In this document: in pieces, positions 23,748 to 57,383 of the stretch
Layout: each line of letters begins with the position of its first letter
Position numbering within the stretch: position 1 is the stretch's first letter
From: Candidatus Saccharibacteria bacterium CPR2
GTDB taxonomy: Bacteria > Patescibacteriota > Saccharimonadia > Saccharimonadales > QWHN01
Length of the DNA stretch: 64,000 nt
Assembly: GCA_021404905.1 (NCBI GenBank)
Contig: QWHN01000001.1
Coordinates: 258,810-322,809 of the forward strand
Direction of reading: 5' to 3'
Notes under the pieces: generated by a model
Told to the model about the DNA's origin: nothing
The model's database searches: none
What the model saw: the letters and a program-made list of their open reading frames with translations, nothing else
Position numbers and translations under genes: made by a program

Positions 23748-25265
23748 ATGAAAATGCCAGCAAAAGTTAAGTCGATGTGGCGGGTTAATCTTGTCTCTAT
23801 ATCTGTTTTTATGTTGGCTGGTGTAGTTGCTGGTTTACTATTACTGCGTAGCTTTGCAGCAGGTTCGGCGGCGCTATACGTTTCTCCTTCTAGCGCTACG
23901 GTTGACGTCAATTCAAACTTTACCGTTAATGTAATGGTAAATACAAATGGTTCTTCCGTATCGGCTGTGGATGTTAAAGTAACTTATGATACTGCCAAAC
24001 TACAGCTTGTTTCCAAAGATTACTCCAGCTCTGCTTTTACAGATTATGTTTCTTCGCCAAGCACTTCTGCTGGGACAGTTCAGTTTTTGCATGCTCAGTT
24101 TAGCCCTTTAAACGGGGATTTGTTAATAGGTCGCATTACATTTAAAGCTATAGCAGGGTCAGGATCAACTTCCTTATCATTTACGGGAGACTCTGAGGCA
24201 GCGTTTGAGGGTTCATCAATTGTCGGCTCAAGAACTGGCGCAACCATTAATTTAAATACTCCAGCAAGCACTCCGCCCCCGTCATCAGGCGGCGGGTCGA
24301 CTCAGCAAACCAACAATACAGGTTCATCGTCTGGTAGCAATTCGAGTAACAGCTCGGGGTCGAGCACCACGACTAATTCAGGCTCATCGAATACAACCAC
24401 TGGTTCTGAACCAACGACTAGCGCTTCACCCGAAAATCCTGAAGGCCCGTCTATTACAAATCTGGAAACTATTGAGGTAGGGTTTAAAAAAGCGATAATA
24501 AAGTTCAATACATCAAAGCCTGCAACCGCAACTGTTGAATATGGAGAAAGCCAGGATCTTGGCAGTGTTGCCGAATCAAAAGAAGCAAAACAAGAGCATT
24601 CTGTTTCACTAACTAATTCGCTTCTAAAGCCAGGCACAACACACTACTATAAGGTGACAGTGTCAGACGCAGATGGGAATAAAGCAACCAGCGATGTTCT
24701 TAAATTTACTACTCGAGGATACTACTTAATTATTAAACTGTCTCAACCTGACGGGAAACCGCTTGCGAAGGTTCCCGTACAACTTTTTTCAGAACCAAGA
24801 GAGGGCACGACTGATGACATAGGCCAAGTTGAGTTTGATAATGTGGCGTTCGGGGAACATACAATAAAGTACAATCATAATGGCAAAGATTATGAGCAGA
24901 AACTTGAAGTTAGCGATGTTCTTTCTCTTGCTAATGTCGATGTGGCAGATGACACCGAGGTGAATCCGCAAGTTTACCAAGTGTTTGCTGTAAAATCTAC
25001 TAGTTTCTCGAGCAAGACAGGATACCTAACGACTATCGCAATTGTCTTAATAATCGGCATGATCGGCTTTGGGGTGACATTATTCATAAAAAATCGTAAG
25101 TTAAGCTTGAATACTATCAGCTCTGGGGTCGGTGAAGTATCCGTTGGCGGAGTAGGCATAAAGCCAAAAATAAATGCTCAAAAAGACTCTGGGCAGAAAC
25201 AAGAAGATGATCCCATAAAGAGGCTTCTTGAAAGCGAAGACGATAAACCAAATAAATCACTTTAG
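23748..25265 (+). CDS. cell-surface protein: signal/anchor, cohesin-like domain, S/T/G/N-rich linker, FN3-like and prealbumin-like domains, C-terminal TM anchor
   Basis: An N-terminal hydrophobic segment is followed by a ~130-aa block with the cohesin beta-sandwich pattern (…ALYVSPSSATVDVNSNFTVNVMVNTNGSSVSAVDVKVTYDTAKLQLVSK…LLIGRITFKAIAGSGSTSLSFTG). A low-complexity linker runs 24280-24420. The C-terminal TM is IAIVLIIGMIGFGVTLFI, then a charged tail. SD AAGGAA. Confidence 0.6.
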   Translation: MKMPAKVKSMWRVNLVSISVFMLAGVVAGLLLLRSFAAGSAALYVSPSSATVDVNSNFTVNVMVNTNGSSVSAVDVKVTYDTAKLQLVSKDYSSSAFTDYVSSPSTSAGTVQFLHAQFSPLNGDLLIGRITFKAIAGSGSTSLSFTGDSEAAFEGSSIVGSRTGATINLNTPASTPPPSSGGGSTQQTNNTGSSSGSNSSNSSGSSTTTNSGSSNTTTGSEPTTSASPENPEGPSITNLETIEVGFKKAIIKFNTSKPATATVEYGESQDLGSVAESKEAKQEHSVSLTNSLLKPGTTHYYKVTVSDADGNKATSDVLKFTTRGYYLIIKLSQPDGKPLAKVPVQLFSEPREGTTDDIGQVEFDNVAFGEHTIKYNHNGKDYEQKLEVSDVLSLANVDVADDTEVNPQVYQVFAVKSTSFSSKTGYLTTIAIVLIIGMIGFGVTLFIKNRKLSLNTISSGVGEVSVGGVGIKPKINAQKDSGQKQEDDPIKRLLESEDDKPNKSL

Positions 25266-27824: not shown

Positions 27825-28493
27825 GTGAAAAAGGCTAAAGATGAGGATGGGATAATAAAAGGTAGTGCAAAGACCTCAATTTTTAGGCTTAAATCACTAC
27901 CCAAGAGTTCTAAGATCAAGAGTCAAGAAGATAAAGATGTAAAAATTCAACCAAAACAAAATAGTAGAAAAAACAAATCAAAAGCTAACCCAAAGCAAAC
28001 TGTTTATAAATTGATATTTTCAGTATTGTTAGTTGCAATATTAATTACTGTTTTCTTAGTAATATTAAATTCCCAAAAACCTCAGCCATCACATGTTACA
28101 GACGCATATATCTATGAAGAAAATTTTCGAGACGCCAGATCACTTAGCATATCAGGTAAATATTCAGAAGCTGAAGAAAAAATAAGTTATATGCTTTCAA
28201 AAGAAAACGATGCAAATCGCAAAAAAGAGTTGCTTAGTCTGTTGGGGGCTAACCAAGCTAATAACAAAGAATATGATAAGGCTATTGAATCATATCGCCA
28301 GGTGGAGCAGCTAGAAGTAACACCCAGTTATGCAACTTTGTCCTCTATTGCGAAAACTGCCGAATTAAGCGGCAACAAAGATCTGGCAATACAATATTAC
28401 GGGAAGGTAATAGACCAACTAGATACAAACAGCTCTATGTACTTGGAAGAAAAAGCTTACTACGAAGATAAAATTAAAGAGTTACAGCAATGA
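27825..28493 (+). CDS. hypothetical membrane-anchored protein with TPR-like C-terminal region
   Basis: Lys-rich N-terminus, one TM (LIFSVLLVAILITVFLVIL) and helical repeats. Start ambiguous (GTG 27825 or ATG 27841). Confidence 0.4.
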   Translation: MKKAKDEDGIIKGSAKTSIFRLKSLPKSSKIKSQEDKDVKIQPKQNSRKNKSKANPKQTVYKLIFSVLLVAILITVFLVILNSQKPQPSHVTDAYIYEENFRDARSLSISGKYSEAEEKISYMLSKENDANRKKELLSLLGANQANNKEYDKAIESYRQVEQLEVTPSYATLSSIAKTAELSGNKDLAIQYYGKVIDQLDTNSSMYLEEKAYYEDKIKELQQ

Positions 28494-30400
28494 AGAAGTT
28501 AACTATTAGTTCGAATCTTGTAAGTATGCTTGTTTTATTTTCTATTTCATTCTTAGCAATTTCAATCAATATGGCTGTCAACCCATCCAGAGTGGAAGCA
28601 GCCGGTCATAGAGTTTGGGCATGTGGATTTTACCCAAATAGCATTGATGAGTTTATAGGAACAATATATGACAGGTTGTATAACGGTGATAATAATGTGG
28701 GGGGCGATTGTGGTACCGGTTATTCAACCGATGAACAATACATGTCTGGTGCAGCATTCATAATGTTGAATATGCTCAACGGCAAGTCTGATCATATAAC
28801 TGTGGCAAATGTCCCTGAAGCTAGGGAACGATTTGCTGAGTGGGAGGCAAAAGTTCGATATGTGGCATCTATAGGAGGAGTTAACCTAAATTGGGTAAAT
28901 TATGGGTATGGAGAAAATAGCCTTTGGGATGATGCGACTCTTGAAGACAGATATTATGGTGAAAATGGTAGTGCTGATTCTATAGTCTTTGACTTGCCTG
29001 GCATAATGCATATAGCTATAAAAAAGTATTGTGCTAACTTGGTTGCTGTAGCTGGTCGGCTTCCCGAGCCTGGTAACTTTGATCTAACACCAACCATCAA
29101 TAATATGCCAGCAACTGCAGTACGCGGACAAAATATAGATGTTGCTTCGTACGTAACAAATAACGGCAGTGGCCCATCTATACTTTCGGACAGATTAGGT
29201 GTGCTGGTAGCACGCTTTGTCGGTTATGCTGGCTCTGAAGTATTGAACCCTAATCCTATGTGGAGTAACCAAGTTATTCCGCAAGGAGCAACTTGGTCAT
29301 TTGGCGGACCCATTACAATACCATCTAATGCTACTTTGGGCAGCACATTTTGTGTAGTTTTACGTGTAAATCCTGGTGCGGGCCAGACTTATGGGCCGCG
29401 TACAGACAATTTAAGATGGGATGCTGCCTGCACCCGCATTGTCGACAAACCCTTCGTCCACGTAAATGATGGAGACGTATTCTCTGGAGCCAGGTTTAAT
29501 GTGGATTCTAACGGTTGCTCTAAAACAAGCTCGACTGTTGGCCTCATAAAATCTCAAAACTATAATATTGGTGGCAATATATTTGGCAGTAAAGATGAGT
29601 ACGCTCTTACTGCATTGGGTGCAATAGATAATTTTGGTTCAGCTAATAACCCAACCAGTGGCTTACTAAAATTTGCCAATAATCCTTCTCCCGAAGGTTT
29701 CTTCGATAATTTAGCCAATAGACAATGCTTGCCAGACTATTATGACAAGTTTGATGATGGTGCAACTGAAATTACTGCTAACGACTTTAATAATGGCATA
29801 CAAAGCATCACAACTTCTGGCATATATAAACTAACAGGCGGAACAGTAAAAATAAGCAACTTCCCATCTCCATCAGGTGCGACTCCATATAGAGGACAAG
29901 TCATTATGTTGGTAGATGCTGGTGATCTTATTCTCGATACTGATATGCAATATGCAGATATCTATGGCATTACCGATCCCAGCCAGATTCCATACTTCAT
30001 GGTAATAGTCAAAGGCGGTAATATTATTGTTAAGGACAGTATCACTAATATTGACGGTATTTTCATCACTATGCCGAGGGATAAAGATAATGATGGTGAT
30101 ATTGACGATTCAAATGAAGGCGGATACTTCAATACATGCGGTGTACCCTCCAGCTTCGCTACTCCACTACGACTTAGTACCAGTACTTGCAACCAACCTC
30201 TCACAATTAACGGGGCTGTCATGGCGCACAAAATACTGCTTAACAGAACCAGGATAGATGGTCCACCAAACTACCAACCAGCTGAAATAATTAACTTGCA
30301 TCCGGAAATGTATTTTTCAAGTCCGCTATTCAATCAACAGACTGAAACTAAGGGGCTTGGTCCCACCCGATCTGTCAGAGATCTGCCGCCAGTGTACTAG
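28490..30400 (+). CDS. large secreted protein of unknown function (signal peptide; beta-rich, CARDB-like segment)
   Basis: N-terminal signal peptide (MKKLTISSNLVSMLVLFSISFLAISINMAVNPSRVEAAG). No catalytic motif recognised. Its stop codon abuts the heptamer repeat and the IS30. Confidence 0.45.
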   Translation: MKKLTISSNLVSMLVLFSISFLAISINMAVNPSRVEAAGHRVWACGFYPNSIDEFIGTIYDRLYNGDNNVGGDCGTGYSTDEQYMSGAAFIMLNMLNGKSDHITVANVPEARERFAEWEAKVRYVASIGGVNLNWVNYGYGENSLWDDATLEDRYYGENGSADSIVFDLPGIMHIAIKKYCANLVAVAGRLPEPGNFDLTPTINNMPATAVRGQNIDVASYVTNNGSGPSILSDRLGVLVARFVGYAGSEVLNPNPMWSNQVIPQGATWSFGGPITIPSNATLGSTFCVVLRVNPGAGQTYGPRTDNLRWDAACTRIVDKPFVHVNDGDVFSGARFNVDSNGCSKTSSTVGLIKSQNYNIGGNIFGSKDEYALTALGAIDNFGSANNPTSGLLKFANNPSPEGFFDNLANRQCLPDYYDKFDDGATEITANDFNNGIQSITTSGIYKLTGGTVKISNFPSPSGATPYRGQVIMLVDAGDLILDTDMQYADIYGITDPSQIPYFMVIVKGGNIIVKDSITNIDGIFITMPRDKDNDGDIDDSNEGGYFNTCGVPSSFATPLRLSTSTCNQPLTINGAVMAHKILLNRTRIDGPPNYQPAEIINLHPEMYFSSPLFNQQTETKGLGPTRSVRDLPPVY

Positions 30401-47026: not shown

Positions 47027-47536
47027 ATGGAAAGGACTTTAGTTGTTTTAAAACCAGATGCTGTAAAAAGAGGTATTGTAGGCGAAATTATTATGCGTTT
47101 TGAAAAAGCTGGGATGAAAATGATTGGCATTAAAATGCTGCATCCTAATCAAGAGCATTATCATAAGCATTACGAAGGTATTAGTAAAATGATCAGCCGT
47201 CGTGGCCAGAAAGCCTTTGATCTTACTTTAAAATTTATGATGGAAGGCCCGGTAATTGCTATAGTTTTGGAAGGTGTTGAGGCGGTTTCTCAAGTCAGAA
47301 AAATGGTTGGCGCAACCGCTCCAAAAGACGCAAGTCCGGGTACAATTCGAGGTGACTATGCTCATATGAGTTTTGATTATGCGGATAAAATTGACACTGG
47401 TGTGCCTAATCTAATTCATGCGTCGGGCGATACCAAAGAAGCTGAAAAAGAAATTTGGCATTGGTTTAATGAAGATGAACTGTTTGACTACCAAACCGTT
47501 CACGAATATTTTATAGTGGGTAAAAACAAAAACTAG
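47027..47536 (+). CDS. ndk: nucleoside diphosphate kinase
   Basis: TLVVLKPDAVKRGIVGEII…, an active-site His region (NLIHASGD), and a ~25-aa insertion. SD AAGAGGAG. Confidence 0.9.
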   Translation: MERTLVVLKPDAVKRGIVGEIIMRFEKAGMKMIGIKMLHPNQEHYHKHYEGISKMISRRGQKAFDLTLKFMMEGPVIAIVLEGVEAVSQVRKMVGATAPKDASPGTIRGDYAHMSFDYADKIDTGVPNLIHASGDTKEAEKEIWHWFNEDELFDYQTVHEYFIVGKNKN

Positions 47537-47562
47537 CTTGAGTGCTGATAGTACTCCGACGC

Positions 47563-47637
47563 GCCCCCATAGTTTAATGGATAAAATACCTCCGTCCTAA
47601 GGAGTAGCTCCTCGTTCGAGTCGAGGTGGGGGCGCCA
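47563..47637 (+). tRNA. tRNA-Arg (anticodon CCU)
   Basis: Hand-folded cloverleaf: acceptor GCCCCCA/UGGGGGC, anticodon loop GUCCUAA, T-arm CCUCG-UUCGAGU-CGAGG, encoded CCA. There is one C·U mismatch at the base of the anticodon stem. Confidence 0.75.
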
Positions 47638-47707
47638 TCTGAAAATTTTCCATAAAAAACTATTGTAAAATATTACGTTTAAGCTTATCTTTATTCTAGA
47701 TAGATAA

Positions 47708-48748
47708 ATGTCTAATAGACAGAGACATAATGTGATAAAAAAAATTAAAAGCCAATTTAATGTAAACAAGGTAGCACTTGTACTAACAATTGTTTCATTT
47801 GGTGCCATCGGATATGTTCTACTTCGAGGTTCATTAGCAGCTGATTCTATAGTTGATGTACAGGCAGAAAATATGACTGCTACTGGAGGTGCAAGTACTG
47901 GGAGTGATACGAATGCATCAAGTGGGCAATACTTTAAGTTTGGTAGCGCCAGTGGCAGTTTAGAGCCGATTCTACCCAATTTTACAGGAACGTGTCCTAC
48001 CATAAAGTCTGGTCAGGTTAGTTTTCCTTCTGATAGTAATCGTGTTGTCCATTTTCGGATGGACAGTAATGCAAGCACCAAAGGTCCTCTTATATTTCTC
48101 TGGCATGGCCAACAAACAGCCGACACTACTGATTCAGAAGCTAATTCCATTGGTAATAATTTACTAGGAAGTACTACAGTTACAAATTTAGTTAATGCTG
48201 GCGCGGTATTAGCAATAATGAAAATGCATACTGCTAGCACTTGGGATAATGCTAGTAGTTGGAGTACATCAAATCGTGACTTAAATTTAGTAGATGCTGT
48301 AACTGCTTGCGCAAACAACCAAGGACACATTGATAGTAAAAGAATACACTCCATAGGTATGAGTTGGGGTGGTTACCAAACCTCTCATTTGGCATTTCTA
48401 AGAGCAAACTATATAGCAAGTGCGGTAGTAATGTCGGGTGGTTTTACTGGAAGTCCTCCTTCAAGTGCCATTCAGCGACCAGAAAATAAGTTTGCAACAA
48501 TTACTACATTAGGTTCTACTTCTGCGGGTGAGCTACAGGTTGTTGTATCACCATTACAAGGGTATCGCGATTATGCAAAATCTGCCGGACATTTCGTAGT
48601 ACATTGTCAACACAGTGGAGGGCACATACCTATTTCTGGTGGTGGTCCGATGCATCAAAGATTTTTCCAAGATCATTATTATGGAGTTCCCAAAGCATAT
48701 ACGACACTTCCTGTACCTCCATTCTTAAGTTCCTGTTCAATTTATTAA
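47708..48748 (+). CDS. secreted alpha/beta-hydrolase (esterase/depolymerase-like)
   Basis: Signal-anchor (VALVLTIVSFGAIGYVLL), an N-terminal beta-rich segment, and a GxSxG nucleophile elbow (GMSWGG) with downstream His. Confidence 0.55.
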   Translation: MSNRQRHNVIKKIKSQFNVNKVALVLTIVSFGAIGYVLLRGSLAADSIVDVQAENMTATGGASTGSDTNASSGQYFKFGSASGSLEPILPNFTGTCPTIKSGQVSFPSDSNRVVHFRMDSNASTKGPLIFLWHGQQTADTTDSEANSIGNNLLGSTTVTNLVNAGAVLAIMKMHTASTWDNASSWSTSNRDLNLVDAVTACANNQGHIDSKRIHSIGMSWGGYQTSHLAFLRANYIASAVVMSGGFTGSPPSSAIQRPENKFATITTLGSTSAGELQVVVSPLQGYRDYAKSAGHFVVHCQHSGGHIPISGGGPMHQRFFQDHYYGVPKAYTTLPVPPFLSSCSIY

Positions 48749-48775: not shown

Positions 48776-51073
48776 ATGAATATCCAAAAATTATCAACAA
48801 AAAACTTAGTTCGATTGCTTTGGGTAATATTTGTCTTGGCTTTGTTTGCTACTGCATTTGTATTTCAGAACAGGCTTGATGTAAACGCCGCATGTGCTGG
48901 TTCTAACTATGGCAGTGGTACAACGCAAATAAATGTTAGCGGAAGTGGTACGCATAGGGTTTGGGCAAGAGTTATGCCATCAACATCTACCGGCAATTCG
49001 TTCTTTATGCAAATAGATAGCGGTACGTGTATTGAAGTTGGTACGAACAATTCGGTAACTGCTAACCAATGGACTTGGATAGATTATAAAAATAGTAATG
49101 AATCCACCAAAAACGATGTTAGTTTAAGCACTGGTAATCATACACTCAGTATTTATGGCAAAACAGCAAATCTAAAAATTGATAGGATAATAATGACAAG
49201 TAGCACATCTTGTGTTCCGACAGATAAAGGTGATAATTGTGTATCCGTGACTCCTCCACCTGTTAGCGGAGATTCAAGTGAAGTTTGTGGAACCTGGGTG
49301 ATCCAACAAGTTTCAAGTGTATCAGAGTTAAATAGTCTAGAGTCTAAGATTAAAGACGCATTAGATTTGCCGGGAGTTGTTGGTTTCTCTGTTAGGTTTC
49401 CTTGGAACGCAGCTGATATATCCGGTTCTGCTACTACTCATCCTCTACTTGATAAGGCAAAACAAATTGCCGATAGCAAAGGGAAAGCCCTTTCAATTCG
49501 TTTTATGGCAGGCCGCCACGTGCCGACAAGAGTATTTGATGCCGGGGCTAAATACTATCTCTTTAATAATCAAAAAGTTGGTATACCCTGGGATTCAAGC
49601 GACCCTAATATATACCGCAAAAATCAGATCTGGTTAGACGAATTCGACAAATATACAGCCAAACTTGTTAACTGGTCTAAACAAAATAATGTCAAGCTTA
49701 TTCATCTTTCATGGTGGGCCCAAGATTGGGCGGAATTAAATCATGGCAAGGAGGTCCGCGCTTTGCCTGGGTATTCAAAAAGCAACTGGCTTTCAGGCCA
49801 CAAAGAAATAATTGATATTGGTGCAAAGTATGCAAACGATGCTTCTAGTGGCGTAATTATGGAATTGCCGATGTCTGGTTATGGTCCTGTTGCCACGGAC
49901 ATGTCACCTGCTTTAGCGGATCATATTGTATCTAAGGTTGGTCAAAATACCGACAAATTTTTCATCCAGGCCAATGGTTGGAGCAACTCTCAGGAATGGG
50001 GAGCACCGGATACTACAACTGAAGCGTCATTTGATCAAATTTGGGCTAAGCCTGTAAAACGGGGCTTGCAGGCGATCCAACCAGATGGGTATGATTGGAC
50101 AGCAGCCTATGCGCGCCTCGGTGACCCATCAAAATTACCAACGCAGTCTAGTAAAGATTCAGTAAACGCGACTTATGCTGAAGTTTATCTACCAAGCTTT
50201 TGGCAAATACCAGGCCCTATGGGGAATAACACCCAAGTTAAAATAGACCAATTAAAATCTGAAATCGCAAAGTTTGGGCAAAAATGTCCAACCGGACAAC
50301 CGCCACAAGACACTACACCCCCAAACATTTCGCTTTCAGCCAATCCCACTACTGTGACTGTTGGTAGCAACGTCTCGCTAAACGCTACGGCGTCAGATAA
50401 CATAGGTGTGACTAACGTTGAATTTTATGATGAAAGCACGTTGATTGGCAGCGACTCTTCATCTCCATATACGCTTACCTGGAATACTACAGGCGCGTCA
50501 ACCGGAGCCCATAGTATGACCGCTAAAGCGTTTGATATGGCCGGAAACACAAAAACCAGCACGGCGGTGTTCGTAACCGTACAAAACTCTACGCCTTCGG
50601 ACACAACGGCTCCGAGCGTAGCACTTACTAGTCCTTCTGCCGGCGCGACTGTTTACACCGGCAGCGCTCAGACGCTAACGGCAACCGCTTCGGATAATAC
50701 AGGTGTAACCAAAGTTGAGTTCTATAGAGCAGGACAATATCTACTCGGTACGGCTACCAGAAGCTCGGGTACGGCGCAGAACGGTACCTGGACAGCCAGT
50801 TGGTCACCAACTACCGCGGGCTCAGCGCCATTGACAGCCAAAGCCTACGATGCGGCCGGTAATGTTACCGATTCATCTATTGTTACTGTTACTATATCTG
50901 ATCAACCCCCACTAGTTCCTGCAGATTTGAATAATGACGGTAAAGTAGATATCTTTGATCTTTCAATACTGCTATCTAAATGGAATACGAGCGACCAAAC
51001 CGCGGATATTAACAATGACGACAAGGTTGACGTGTTTGATCTTTCCATCATGCTGTCGAGCTGGTCTTCGTAA
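48776..51073 (+). CDS. secreted multidomain protein: CBM-like beta-sandwich + TIM-barrel-like (putative glycoside hydrolase) region + two Ig-like repeats + C-terminal dockerin
   Basis: Signal peptide present. Two ~95-aa tandem Ig-like repeats (…ASDNIGVTNVEFYDES… / …ASDNTGVTKVEFYRAG…). The C-terminal pair of Ca-binding dockerin segments reads DLNNDGKVDIFDLSILLSKW and DINNDDKVDVFDLSIMLSSW. Confidence 0.6.
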   Translation: MNIQKLSTKNLVRLLWVIFVLALFATAFVFQNRLDVNAACAGSNYGSGTTQINVSGSGTHRVWARVMPSTSTGNSFFMQIDSGTCIEVGTNNSVTANQWTWIDYKNSNESTKNDVSLSTGNHTLSIYGKTANLKIDRIIMTSSTSCVPTDKGDNCVSVTPPPVSGDSSEVCGTWVIQQVSSVSELNSLESKIKDALDLPGVVGFSVRFPWNAADISGSATTHPLLDKAKQIADSKGKALSIRFMAGRHVPTRVFDAGAKYYLFNNQKVGIPWDSSDPNIYRKNQIWLDEFDKYTAKLVNWSKQNNVKLIHLSWWAQDWAELNHGKEVRALPGYSKSNWLSGHKEIIDIGAKYANDASSGVIMELPMSGYGPVATDMSPALADHIVSKVGQNTDKFFIQANGWSNSQEWGAPDTTTEASFDQIWAKPVKRGLQAIQPDGYDWTAAYARLGDPSKLPTQSSKDSVNATYAEVYLPSFWQIPGPMGNNTQVKIDQLKSEIAKFGQKCPTGQPPQDTTPPNISLSANPTTVTVGSNVSLNATASDNIGVTNVEFYDESTLIGSDSSSPYTLTWNTTGASTGAHSMTAKAFDMAGNTKTSTAVFVTVQNSTPSDTTAPSVALTSPSAGATVYTGSAQTLTATASDNTGVTKVEFYRAGQYLLGTATRSSGTAQNGTWTASWSPTTAGSAPLTAKAYDAAGNVTDSSIVTVTISDQPPLVPADLNNDGKVDIFDLSILLSKWNTSDQTADINNDDKVDVFDLSIMLSSWSS

Positions 51074-55760: not shown

Positions 55761-57383
55761 ATGAAAAACATAGAAATACCCATAGAAAATAAAACCAAAA
55801 CTTATCGTTTTTTTGAAATTTTGCCGGGCACTATGAGCTGGCTGATTTTGTTTTTGCCGATAATCTTAAGCGTCATCAATCCATCACTTGCGGCATATTT
55901 CATCATTATGTATATGGTTACCTGGCTTTTAAGGGCTGCGGTGATGTCGTTTAGAATTTTTCAAGCCTATCACAAGATGCAATGGCGCCAGGGCCTTAAT
56001 TGGCAGAAAATGCTTAGTGATATAGAGAATTTTGATAAAGCTATATGTGAATTGCACAATAAAAAACGCGATAGATTTGAAAGATGGCATTATGAGAATT
56101 TGCTGAGTTATAAGATAAGCGATCAAGAGAAGGTGAAGCCATCGGATCTTTTTCACGCGATTATAATAGCTATTTACAATGAAAGTATTGAAATCGTAGA
56201 ACCAACCGTGAAAGCCGTTATAAATTCTAATTACGATACTTCAAAAATCATTTTGTACCTTGCCTATGAAGAAAGAGGTGGCGCTCAAACCGAGGAAGTT
56301 GCCAGTAGGCTTAAAAGTAAATATGGCGATAAATTTTTTATTATGAAGACCACAAAACATCCTAAGGACATACCAGGTGAGGTAATAGGTAAAGGTGGCA
56401 ACATAACCTATGCTGGTCTGGATCTTAAGAAAGAGATTGAGAAGCGTAACATCGATCCAATTAATGTATTGGTCACGACTTTGGATGCAGACAATCAGCC
56501 GCACGAAAATTACCTCGCGTCGATAGCATATGCGTATTTAACAGAAGAAAATCGGCAGTATAAATCGTTTCAACCAATACCTATGTACACAAATAACATT
56601 TGGGATGCGCCAGCACCTATGAGGCTAATAGCTGTAGGGAGCTCGTTTTGGTGGTCCATTCAATCAGTTCGCCCGCATTTACTGAGAAATTTTAGCTCTC
56701 ATGCGCAGGGGCTAAGGGCTCTAATTGACACGGATTTTTGGAGTACCAGAACTATTGTAGAAGATGGTCATCAGTTTTGGCGCACATATTTTAGATATGA
56801 CGGCAAACATGAGGTAATACCAACGTTCGTACCTATTTACCAGGATGCGGTTTTATCTGATACTTACGTGCGAACATTTAAAGCTCAATTCGTTCAGCTT
56901 AGGAGATGGGCTTGGGGAGCAACAGATGTTGCGTATGTCGCGACCAAAAGCATGGAGGAAGCTTGCAATGCGCCAGCCTGGGACAGAATATTTAAATTCT
57001 TTAGACTTCTCGATAGCCATGTCAGTTGGGCTACAGCGCCTTTGATACTAGCCGGAGCAGCTTGGGCCCCAATTCTTTTTAGCCCTGTGGGCAGGGAAAG
57101 TATCGTTGCCCACCAGTTGCCTTCTATAGCCAGTTTCTTGCAAACCGTTGCCTTGTTCGGAATTCCGGCGATGATTTATCTCAGCTTCCAAATGCTGCCT
57201 CCAAGGCCAAAGCACTACAAAAGAAGAAGAAGCTTACTAATGCTTGTACAGTGGATCTTAACACCAGTGGTCAGCATACTCTATGGGGCGTTTTCGGCAC
57301 TTTACTCTCAAACCCGCCTTATGTTTGGGAAGTACTATGGTCAATTTGATGTCACAAAGAAGGTAAAAAAAGGCACAAGCTAA
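55761..57383 (+). CDS. family 2 glycosyltransferase, processive synthase type (membrane-embedded)
   Basis: N- and C-terminal TM segments, DxD motif (TLDADNQP), and the Q-x-x-R-W motif (QLRRWAWG) typical of cellulose/chitin/hyaluronan-synthase-like enzymes. Confidence 0.75.
   Translation: MKNIEIPIENKTKTYRFFEILPGTMSWLILFLPIILSVINPSLAAYFIIMYMVTWLLRAAVMSFRIFQAYHKMQWRQGLNWQKMLSDIENFDKAICELHNKKRDRFERWHYENLLSYKISDQEKVKPSDLFHAIIIAIYNESIEIVEPTVKAVINSNYDTSKIILYLAYEERGGAQTEEVASRLKSKYGDKFFIMKTTKHPKDIPGEVIGKGGNITYAGLDLKKEIEKRNIDPINVLVTTLDADNQPHENYLASIAYAYLTEENRQYKSFQPIPMYTNNIWDAPAPMRLIAVGSSFWWSIQSVRPHLLRNFSSHAQGLRALIDTDFWSTRTIVEDGHQFWRTYFRYDGKHEVIPTFVPIYQDAVLSDTYVRTFKAQFVQLRRWAWGATDVAYVATKSMEEACNAPAWDRIFKFFRLLDSHVSWATAPLILAGAAWAPILFSPVGRESIVAHQLPSIASFLQTVALFGIPAMIYLSFQMLPPRPKHYKRRRSLLMLVQWILTPVVSILYGAFSALYSQTRLMFGKYYGQFDVTKKVKKGTS

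Follow-up and report, generated by a model that had tools for sequence, protein, structure and literature searches.

The gene at 48776-51073 of a 64 kb stretch of DNA from Candidatus Saccharibacteria bacterium CPR2 (the window; part of an NCBI contig of 389,717 bp, with positions counted from its first letter) encodes a multi-domain dockerin protein, predicted to be exported, whose central (beta/alpha)8 barrel belongs to a family that is unnamed in Pfam and NCBIfam and has no solved relative. The gene directly upstream, with which it forms a conserved pair, encodes a secreted serine alpha/beta hydrolase (hereafter the esterase), and the only cohesin-like open reading frame (ORF) of the window lies at 23748-25265. 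We read the two neighbouring genes, with a probability of about 0.55, as a cell-surface-tethered, polymer (glycan)-degrading unit that is docked on this cohesin. The ORF of the dockerin protein has exactly the extent given in an earlier note, which was made from the letters of this DNA; the domain order proposed there (signal peptide, beta-sandwich-like domain, TIM barrel, two immunoglobulin (Ig)-like domains, dockerin) turned out to be essentially right. By exact-sequence look-up the protein was identified as MCE7936485.1 ("hypothetical protein DYH10_01670", Candidatus Saccharibacteria bacterium CPR2), and seven assembled contigs from several sequencing runs carry the identical protein.

Domain architecture of the dockerin protein

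The central region (amino acids, aa, 158-508) was modelled with AlphaFold2 (AF2) from a 111-sequence alignment. The model had a predicted local distance difference test (pLDDT) value of 92.9 and a predicted template modelling (TM) score of 0.92, with eight strand-helix units by DSSP, and on this model we regard the (beta/alpha)8 barrel fold as established; the family is called TIM-A here. Homologues of the region numbered 223 (up to 59% identity by BLASTP, 63% in the MAFFT alignment), and an exhaustive profile search of 1.84 billion representatives gave 191 family clusters, at the 50% identity level, with E<1e-30. The named homologues all bear the label "hypothetical", and in none of the 223 does a Pfam domain fall on the barrel. 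Searches of aa 158-508 against Pfam, NCBIfam and PDB sequences gave no match, none of the 111 family members (0/111) matched Pfam on the barrel at E<=1, and the barrel-family profile matched PDB sequences on the Fn3 appendages of some members and nowhere on the barrel.

The barrel model was compared with the PDB using Foldseek, which placed soybean beta-amylase (glycoside hydrolase family 14, GH14) first (E 2.5e-9), followed by GH35 beta-galactosidases (E about 1e-6) and a GH113 mannanase; these glycosidase matches had TM scores of about 0.56 and 10-12% identity. Among viral models, glycosidases (phage GH5, hexosaminidases) again came first, with an IolE-like phage isomerase also listed. Since such fold matches are generic, glycoside hydrolase activity is something that we infer from them and not a family assignment; it is plausible and the favoured reading of the model. 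The barrel half of the earlier claim of a TIM-barrel glycoside hydrolase was thereby borne out, and the glycoside hydrolase half found no family match in Pfam, NCBIfam or PDB sequences. The same division applies to clan GH-A, whose (beta/alpha)8 fold is present in the model (with GH35 and GH113 among the Foldseek matches), while no significant match to the profile of a member family was obtained from Pfam, NCBIfam or PDB profiles. Membership in GH14 was considered, as 'QVTGPSARWEEL' of a paralogous barrel type (TIM-B) resembles 'EVGLGPAGELRYP' of beta-amylase by eye; it was ruled out by hhalign, for which the soybean sequence had been confirmed against PDB entries, and beta-amylase Glu380 aligns by strand position with an invariant Gln of the barrel. 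A GH42 match in one family protein (P0193), tried as a bridge to Pfam, lies at aa 802-840 and so outside the family domain (aa 452-749), and was set aside as a fusion.

Invariant columns of the 111-sequence alignment were mapped onto the DSSP strands of the AF2 model and are listed, in full-length numbering, in the table. Ten Trp are invariant as well. The places of the invariant polar residues on the barrel are those in which TIM barrels have their active sites. As read from the alignment, these strand-end and loop residues together with the Trp are what an enzyme with a cleft for sugar binding would show. Among 54 more divergent representatives the equivalents of E469 and Q432 are invariant and that of E320 is kept in at least 90%. 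The paralogous barrels retain the equivalents of E320 and E469 too ('ARWEELCLP' and 'SYMEVYDED' in TIM-B, 'IHGEPY' and 'SYIEVHQP' in TIM-C; alignments read by eye), and E320 and E469 are proposed with low confidence as candidate catalytic pair because these two Glu are conserved across three paralogous barrel types. The N-E motif with which strand 4 ends in clan GH-A was not found: the strand ends in His310, with Glu320 ten residues later, a placement that we take to be like that of the general acid Glu186 of beta-amylase (sequences read by eye). The paralogous Saccharimonadales barrels match GH42 at E 0.01 (TIM-C) and 0.028, both sub-threshold. TIM-C carries the motif 'W.DLEP..G.Y.F' and had no match among PDB sequences.

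The C-terminal dockerin matched Pfam Dockerin_1 (PF00404) over aa 716-759 with 26.3 bits (gathering cutoff 22.9, E 8.6e-6) and NCBIfam dockerin_GC below its cutoff (E 4.7e-6). Its Ca-loop segments read DLNNDGKVDIFDLSILLSKW (aa 717-736) and DINNDDKVDVFDLSIMLSSW (aa 744-763), and the F-hand segments, DLNNDGKVDIFD continued by LSILLSKWNT and DINNDDKVDVFD continued by LSIMLSSWSS, share 15 of 22 positions. By sequence, the duplicated F-hand of about 22 residues is complete, with a 12-residue Ca loop that has D or N at positions 1, 3, 5, 9 and 12 and with predicted helices; the protein ends immediately past the second of these. A strict regular expression for the Ca loop picked out these two sites and no others when all six reading frames of the window were translated. 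For the last 60 residues the best PDB sequence matches are all dockerins, headed by that of Clostridium perfringens NagH (2jnk, E 1.4e-3, a single one-residue gap) and followed by those of Clostridium thermocellum and Clostridium cellulolyticum. The two Ca-binding segments that the earlier note saw at the C-terminus are thus real dockerin segments above the profile cutoff; the spacing of 33 aa given for them has to be corrected, as their starts are 27 aa apart with a linker of 7 aa. Type I dockerins usually have an inter-segment linker of about 8-17 aa. Such a length was not found here, the linker measuring about 5-7 aa and the profile alignment skipping about 7 positions, and in this the domain resembles the NagH dockerin.

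Between the putative signal peptide and the barrel lies a domain with four Cys (aa 40-157) whose top match, in the protein itself and in two orthologues, is GH115_C (PF17829) in the same register, with 19.6, 20.1 and 17.3 bits (E 8e-4, 6e-4 and 4e-3). The suggestion of an N-terminal beta-sandwich has kept the consistency of these three matches on its side and, as all of them fall below the cutoff of 24.1 bits, lacks a significant one; a beta-sandwich is the likely fold. A word-index search with this domain gave no homologues beyond the syntenic proteins of two related contigs (L048, L049). The proposed pair of tandem Ig-like repeats was clear-cut: both are Big_7 domains (PF17957; 105.9 bits over two stretches, cutoff 24.1, with a joint E of 1.6e-30), and 42 of 105 aligned columns (40%) are identical between the two. 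The second Ig-like domain (50591-50911) has a guanine plus cytosine (G+C) fraction of 0.54, compared with 0.49 in the first, 0.38-0.43 in the rest of the gene and 0.40 in the window, a difference that may stem from its richness in Ala, Gly and Thr or from a separate origin.

Table. Features of the window and of related contigs. Contig names beginning with L denote fetched loci, with coordinates of their own; residues are numbered within each full-length protein.
Feature	Residues	Nucleotides	Strand	Remarks
Candidate anchor protein, MCE7936458.1	505 aa	23748-25265	+	Pfam Cohesin, transmembrane helix
Cohesin domain of candidate anchor	aa 46-147	23883-24188	+	Pfam Cohesin
Transmembrane helix of candidate anchor	aa 427-447	25026-25088	+	followed by a charged tail
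tRNA-Arg(CCT), window		47563-47637	+	directly upstream of the esterase gene
tRNA-Arg(CCT), L048		5843-5917
tRNA-Arg(CCT), L049		9475-9551
Secreted serine alpha/beta hydrolase (esterase)	346 aa	47708-48748	+	GMSWGG (Ser219), GGH (His306), N-terminal signal or anchor
Dockerin protein, MCE7936485.1	765 aa	48776-51073	+	whole ORF
Signal peptide or N-terminal anchor	aa 1-39	48776-48892	+	read from the translation; hydrophobic core LLWVIFVLALFATAFVF; ends in VNA, followed by AC
N-terminal carbohydrate-binding-module-like domain, probably a beta-sandwich	aa 40-157	48893-49246	+	four Cys; sub-threshold GH115_C
Linker and (beta/alpha)8 barrel (TIM-A)	aa 158-508 (barrel about aa 170-505)	49247-50299	+	AF2, homologue alignment
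Big_7 Ig-like domain 1	aa 509-605	50300-50590	+	Pfam Big_7; PDB sequence matches 3pdd, 9x9r
Big_7 Ig-like domain 2	aa 606-712	50591-50911	+	Pfam Big_7; PDB sequence matches 3pdd, 9x9r
Compact dockerin	aa 713-765	50912-51073	+	Pfam Dockerin_1; F-hand segments aa 717-738 and 744-765
Invariant barrel residue	R207			strand 2
Invariant barrel residue	R242			strand 3
Invariant barrel residue	H310			end of strand 4
Invariant barrel residues	E320, N322			loop after strand 4
Invariant barrel residue	E363			strand 5
Invariant barrel residues	Q398, N400			strand 6
Invariant barrel residue	E416			start of helix 6
Invariant barrel residues	Q432, Q435			strand 7
Invariant barrel residues	E469, Y471			strand 8
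CDWFIWWFCK tails, L006		9771-9803, 11840-11872
CDWFIWWFCK tails, L014		3837-3872, 5677-5709
CDWFIWWFCK tail, L047		9205
CDWFIWWFCK tail, L048		9206
CDWFIWWFCK tail, L049		9223
CDWFIWWFCK tail, L050		5939

Partner esterase, module exchange and spread of the barrel family

The neighbouring gene, described before as a signal-peptide esterase with a GMSWGG nucleophile elbow, was confirmed as an alpha/beta hydrolase. Its AF2 model has the alpha/beta-hydrolase fold (pLDDT 73.7, with core blocks mostly at 80-94 and low values at aa 1-18 and 40-82), and the best Foldseek match was the oxidised polyvinyl alcohol hydrolase 3wla (E 3.5e-7), followed by cutinases and PETases. Close homologues numbered only 14, in all of which Ser219 and His306 are invariant; fold (from the model), G-x-S-x-G elbow and catalytic His agree with an alpha/beta serine esterase. 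The polyhydroxybutyrate (PHB)/polyhydroxyalkanoate (PHA)-depolymerase profiles (TIGR01840, NF050057) were not reached, with 33.2, 28.3 and 21.3 bits against cutoffs of 270, 150 and 107.85. The NCBI version of the protein, MCE7936484.1, has 338 aa and starts eight codons downstream of the first ATG used in the Logan gene calls (47708-47731). A segment of about 35 aa with the motif '(E/Q)(A/P)E....G.A....D..AS.G....F' ('EAE..SD.NASGG..F') follows the signal anchor in 14 of 14 homologues (47830-47950 in the window, esterase aa 42-82) and was also seen in L046 at about 200-330 (barrel protein P0001, aa 40-80); it is like the start of a CBM6/35-like module, far too short for one and of low pLDDT. 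The chlorophyllase-like hydrolase fused in P0190 was tested as a homologue of the esterase and is not homologous.

At least three further contigs of Saccharimonadales type (L046, L047/48, L049/50) also pair an esterase gene with a barrel gene. Two related metagenome-assembled genomes share the order pilins, XerC, NDK, esterase, multi-domain barrel protein, bPH, PpiC, and in L046 the TIM-A protein overlaps the start of the esterase homologue. The gap between the two genes in the window measures 27 bp; a ribosome-binding site (AAGGA) lies in it and a terminator-like site does not, and judged by this layout the genes are probably a co-transcribed two-gene unit.

For analysis of the domain mosaic, 48776-51073 was compared with its syntenic counterparts at L048 7070-9238 (722 aa) and L049 7072-9255 (727 aa). 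The N-terminal domains are 70-72% identical and the first Ig-like domain is 63-65% identical to the Ig domain of the counterparts, whereas the barrels align only partially at 22-28% identity and are different paralogues; the barrel of the dockerin protein is instead 56-60% identical to TIM-A proteins of L006, L014 and L046. The counterparts have no second Big_7 domain, and in place of this domain and the dockerin they carry an Fn3-like domain and the C-terminal 'GRCDWFIWWFCK' directly before the stop. By these comparisons, catalytic module and C-terminal module have both been exchanged at a conserved locus, the C-terminal module acting, to judge from these alignments, as a swappable unit. The CDWFIWWFCK tail was found in eight copies among the fetched Saccharimonadales loci, in exported multi-domain proteins and after an Fn3-like domain, and may represent a sorting or anchoring signal not described before. 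The window has no copy of it, and a full-text literature search on the motifs WAELNHG and DWFIWWF found nothing. One of the eight tails has an extra S, and L036 ends in a looser variant, 'QCFWFFCSVR'. Tandem TIM-C and TIM-A proteins, in either order and with the same Big_7-Fn3-tail C-terminus, were seen at L006 8001-11872 and L014 1803-5709.

A scan of 185,579 species genomes (one genome per species) with two conserved peptide patterns gave 37 barrel loci, in Nocardioides and other Actinomycetota, Saccharimonadales, many Planctomycetota, Verrucomicrobiota, Sumerlaeota and Archangiaceae. Identity to the barrel of the dockerin protein was 55-58% in Actinomycetota and 56-57% in Saccharimonadales. 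In the majority of the family a signal peptide is followed by the barrel alone; the appendages of other members are Big_7, Fn3, a GH42-like second domain (P0193), a SASA acetylesterase, Laminin_G_3, a Rha78A Ig domain and CWB2, and a dockerin is present in 1 of 54 representatives only. Five Planctomycetota loci have a sulfatase gene no more than 8 kb from the barrel gene, a weak link because Planctomycetota encode many sulfatases. In a rough neighbour-joining tree (no support values) the Saccharimonadales TIM-A sequences nest inside the Actinomycetota diversity, and the G+C of the barrel loci is 0.44-0.48 in Saccharimonadales compared with 0.70-0.75 in Actinomycetota; taken together, these results suggest that Saccharimonadales received the barrel long ago from Actinomycetota, the host phylum. 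L046 (G+C 0.48) joins the Actinomycetota branch of the tree, and from this placement there may have been more than one transfer event. In nine Actinomycetota loci (L005, L007, L009-L012, L016, L017, L037) a protein of about 970 aa with an NHL-repeat beta-propeller and Big_7 is encoded within 8 kb of the barrel gene, directly after it in L005 and L007.

Proposed cohesin pairing and competing readings

The cohesin protein that the earlier note placed at 23748 was recovered with its domain above the Pfam cutoff (PF00963, 35.3 bits against 24.1, E 1.5e-8) when aa 1-174 were scanned alone; the domain is not listed in the whole-protein scan at E<=0.01, and PDB cohesins match the protein only at E 0.19. 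Signal peptide, cohesin, a Ser/Thr/Gly-rich linker, two Ig-like or prealbumin-like domains, transmembrane helix and charged tail follow each other, and matches to MG4, DUF7800 and SpaA were obtained as well. As predicted from sequence, the protein is laid out like an anchoring scaffoldin with one cohesin, and pairing of the dockerin with it is a reasonable inference.

In the proposed mechanism both genes of the pair would encode exported enzymes. The dockerin protein would be exported and its signal peptide probably removed; the N-terminal beta-sandwich would probably bind glycan, the barrel would most likely hydrolyse a glycosidic bond in the polymer and the two Ig domains would act as spacers. 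The Ca-dependent dockerin would plug into the single cohesin at the tip of the stalked, C-terminally membrane-anchored protein, and, held by a membrane-anchored cohesin, the enzyme would stay at the cell surface rather than diffuse off. From the same polymer the esterase would remove acyl substituents, or it would cut ester links. A glycan of the host's envelope or matrix may be the polymer in question, as suggested by the epibiotic life of Saccharibacteria on Actinomycetota. Cultivated Saccharibacteria live attached to Actinomycetota, and to our knowledge little is known of what they do to the host surface. The glycan-related fusions and neighbours of the barrel family (GH42-like domain, SASA, Laminin_G_3, Rha78A Ig, CWB2 and sulfatases) count in favour of a glycan-degrading unit.

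Several results weigh against it. No glycoside hydrolase family is linked to the barrel by a sequence profile, comparison of the TIM-A profile with soybean beta-amylase by hhalign gave a probability of 0.3% and thus no relationship, and aldolase and xylose isomerase barrels score in Foldseek (E about 3e-6) much like GH35. The layout of clan GH-A, with Glu on strands 4 and 7, is absent, strand 7 having the invariant Gln432 and Gln435, and the candidate pair E320/E469 was chosen by sequence conservation only. The fold of the N-terminal domain is likewise read from sub-threshold GH115_C matches. In the esterase no acidic residue between Ser219 and His306 is invariant in the 14 homologues, and all family matches (abhydrolase, PHA/PHB-depolymerase) are far under their cutoffs. 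As for tethering, the linker of the dockerin falls short of the length seen in classical type I domains, the cohesin gene lies 25 kb from the dockerin gene, and the scan covered the window, so that further cohesins and dockerins may exist in the genome.

The last points bear on the alternative to which we give most weight, namely that the dockerin has a different partner, encoded at another place in the genome or present on the host, or that it binds Ca as a module of its own; this is possible, though clearly less probable than docking on the cohesin at 23748. For many dockerins outside cellulosomes no partner is known, the linker is shorter than usual and the two genes are not co-located within a view confined to 64 kb; set against this are the presence of exactly one dockerin and one cohesin in the window and the anchoring-scaffoldin layout of the cohesin protein, with the cohesin at the distal end of the stalk and a C-terminal transmembrane helix. 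We think it distinctly unlikely that the barrel is an enzyme other than a glycosidase (sugar isomerase/epimerase-like, a lyase or of phosphodiesterase type) acting on a cell-envelope polymer. Such chemistry would suit the Foldseek scores of xylose isomerase and aldolase, the IolE-like phage match, the missing glycoside hydrolase profile and an arrangement of Glu (loop after strand 4, strands 5 and 8) that differs from clan GH-A; it sits poorly with an exported protein equipped with carbohydrate-binding-module-like, Ig and dockerin modules, with a family fused to or beside a GH42-like domain, esterases and sulfatases, with the many invariant Trp and Tyr of the barrel and with the lack of a conserved His/Asp-type metal-ligand pattern, and in Foldseek the E-value of the leading match, a glycosidase, is still better by about 2.5 orders of magnitude.

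Action on the own envelope, by autolysin-like remodelling or turnover of the own exopolysaccharide, is judged equally improbable. The pair lies among housekeeping and envelope genes (UppP, PpiC/SurA-like, MgtE) with conserved synteny and has close homologues of its barrel in Actinomycetota themselves, but the exchange of the catalytic cassette between close relatives with retention of the flanking domains fits a variable external target better, and the family is absent from most genomes by the peptide-pattern scan (37 loci in 185,579 species genomes). Least likely of all is a protein that is mainly an adhesin, in which barrel and N-terminal sandwich bind host glycan without cleaving it and dockerin and cohesin couple the bacterium to its host. 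A lectin would hardly account for charged strand-end residues that are invariant across Actinomycetota, Planctomycetota and other free-living phyla; most of the family are simple secreted proteins of one domain, and the conserved esterase partner points to catalysis, even though non-catalytic TIM-barrel lectins exist and the pair lies, in conserved synteny, just downstream of a type IV pilus cluster. Adhesion was weighed besides degradation by Wang et al. for the Southlakia dockerin protein (PMC10633639).

The favoured reading, a glycan-degrading unit docked on the cohesin, describes a system that works like a known kind of system and has an uncharacterised catalytic core. Cohesin-dockerin tethering outside cellulosomes is known. 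The dockerin protein is like C. perfringens NagH/NagJ (2jnk, 2ozn) in having a short duplicated F-hand dockerin at the C-terminus of a multi-domain exported enzyme from a bacterium that produces no cellulosome, and unlike them in that the putative partner is a single cohesin on a membrane-anchored stalk, the genome is that of a reduced Saccharibacterium and the barrel belongs to no named GH family. With the type I cellulosome of C. thermocellum it shares an enzyme-borne dockerin, a cell-bound cohesin and the sequence D-x-N-x-D-G-x-V-D-x-x-D followed by a helix, twice; it differs in the linker (about 5-7 aa compared with the usual 8-17), in I/V-F in place of S-T at loop positions 10 and 11, in a transmembrane helix as anchor and not S-layer homology domains or sortase, in having one dockerin and one cohesin in 64 kb and in the absence of a cellulase family. 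The barrel is like GH14, GH35 and GH42 in its (beta/alpha)8 fold, in its best Foldseek matches and in a Glu about ten residues after strand 4, and unlike them in having Gln on strand 7, where they hold the second catalytic Glu, and its second conserved Glu on strand 8. Fold, G-x-S-x-G elbow, export and best fold and profile matches liken the esterase to PHB-depolymerase esterases, oxidised polyvinyl alcohol hydrolase and cutinases; scores far under the cutoffs (33 against 270 and 21 against 108 bits), the small number of close homologues (14) and the lack of an invariant acid between Ser and His set it apart. Within the same phylum, SEML1_0315 of Southlakia epibionticum is a dockerin-domain envelope protein that was essential in transposon sequencing, and its authors proposed host glycans as its target (Wang et al. 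2023, PMC10633639); it is likened here to the dockerin protein, as an exported dockerin protein, by description and not by comparison of sequences.

What is new at the locus is the domain combination, the unnamed barrel family and the cassette-like exchange of modules. The locus is a defined surface unit with a one-cohesin anchor, a dockerin-bearing enzyme and a conserved partner esterase. One characterised member would annotate at least 190 clusters (50% identity) over several phyla and might define a new CAZy family, and the in-place exchange of barrel and anchor between close relatives is a natural experiment on the retooling of surface enzymes in reduced genomes. A bolder version, which is tentative and, taken as a whole, unlikely, would make the barrel the founding member of an unclassified GH family (Glu in the strand-4 loop, Glu on strand 8, invariant Gln on strand 7) that was taken from the host phylum Actinomycetota and, displayed on the cell surface, cuts a host envelope glycan; if so, the conserved locus beside tRNA-Arg(CCT), with the barrel and the anchoring module (a dockerin, or Fn3 with the CDWFIWWFCK tail) as exchangeable cassettes, would set host range or nutrient range.

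Genomic setting

The window is an ordinary stretch of Saccharibacteria chromosome (about 40% G+C) with genes for DNA polymerase I, PNPase, RNase J, FtsK, EF-P, a XerC-like recombinase, UppP, NDK, a PpiC/SurA-like protein and MgtE; the type IV pilus cluster lies at about 34-45 kb, just upstream of the pair of esterase and dockerin protein genes. Insertion of the locus at a tRNA gene was considered. A tRNA-Arg(CCT) flanks the pair in three of three genomes, upstream in the window and L048 and downstream in L049, so it is kept beside the pair and yet on different sides in different genomes; either the cassette or the tRNA-Arg(CCT) has moved between genomes. No integrase directly adjoins the pair, the XerC-like gene being a syntenic housekeeping gene, and the G+C along the locus is not anomalous except in the second Ig-like domain.

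Two large ORFs of the window have no Pfam family, namely 28490-30400 (636 aa) and 55761-57383 (540 aa), the latter with weak GT2-like matches only (E about 0.01). Opposite the esterase gene, antisense ORFs are present at 47533-48003 (minus strand, 156 aa), which overlaps the tRNA-Arg as well, and at 48013-48354 (minus strand, 113 aa); both are most likely spurious.

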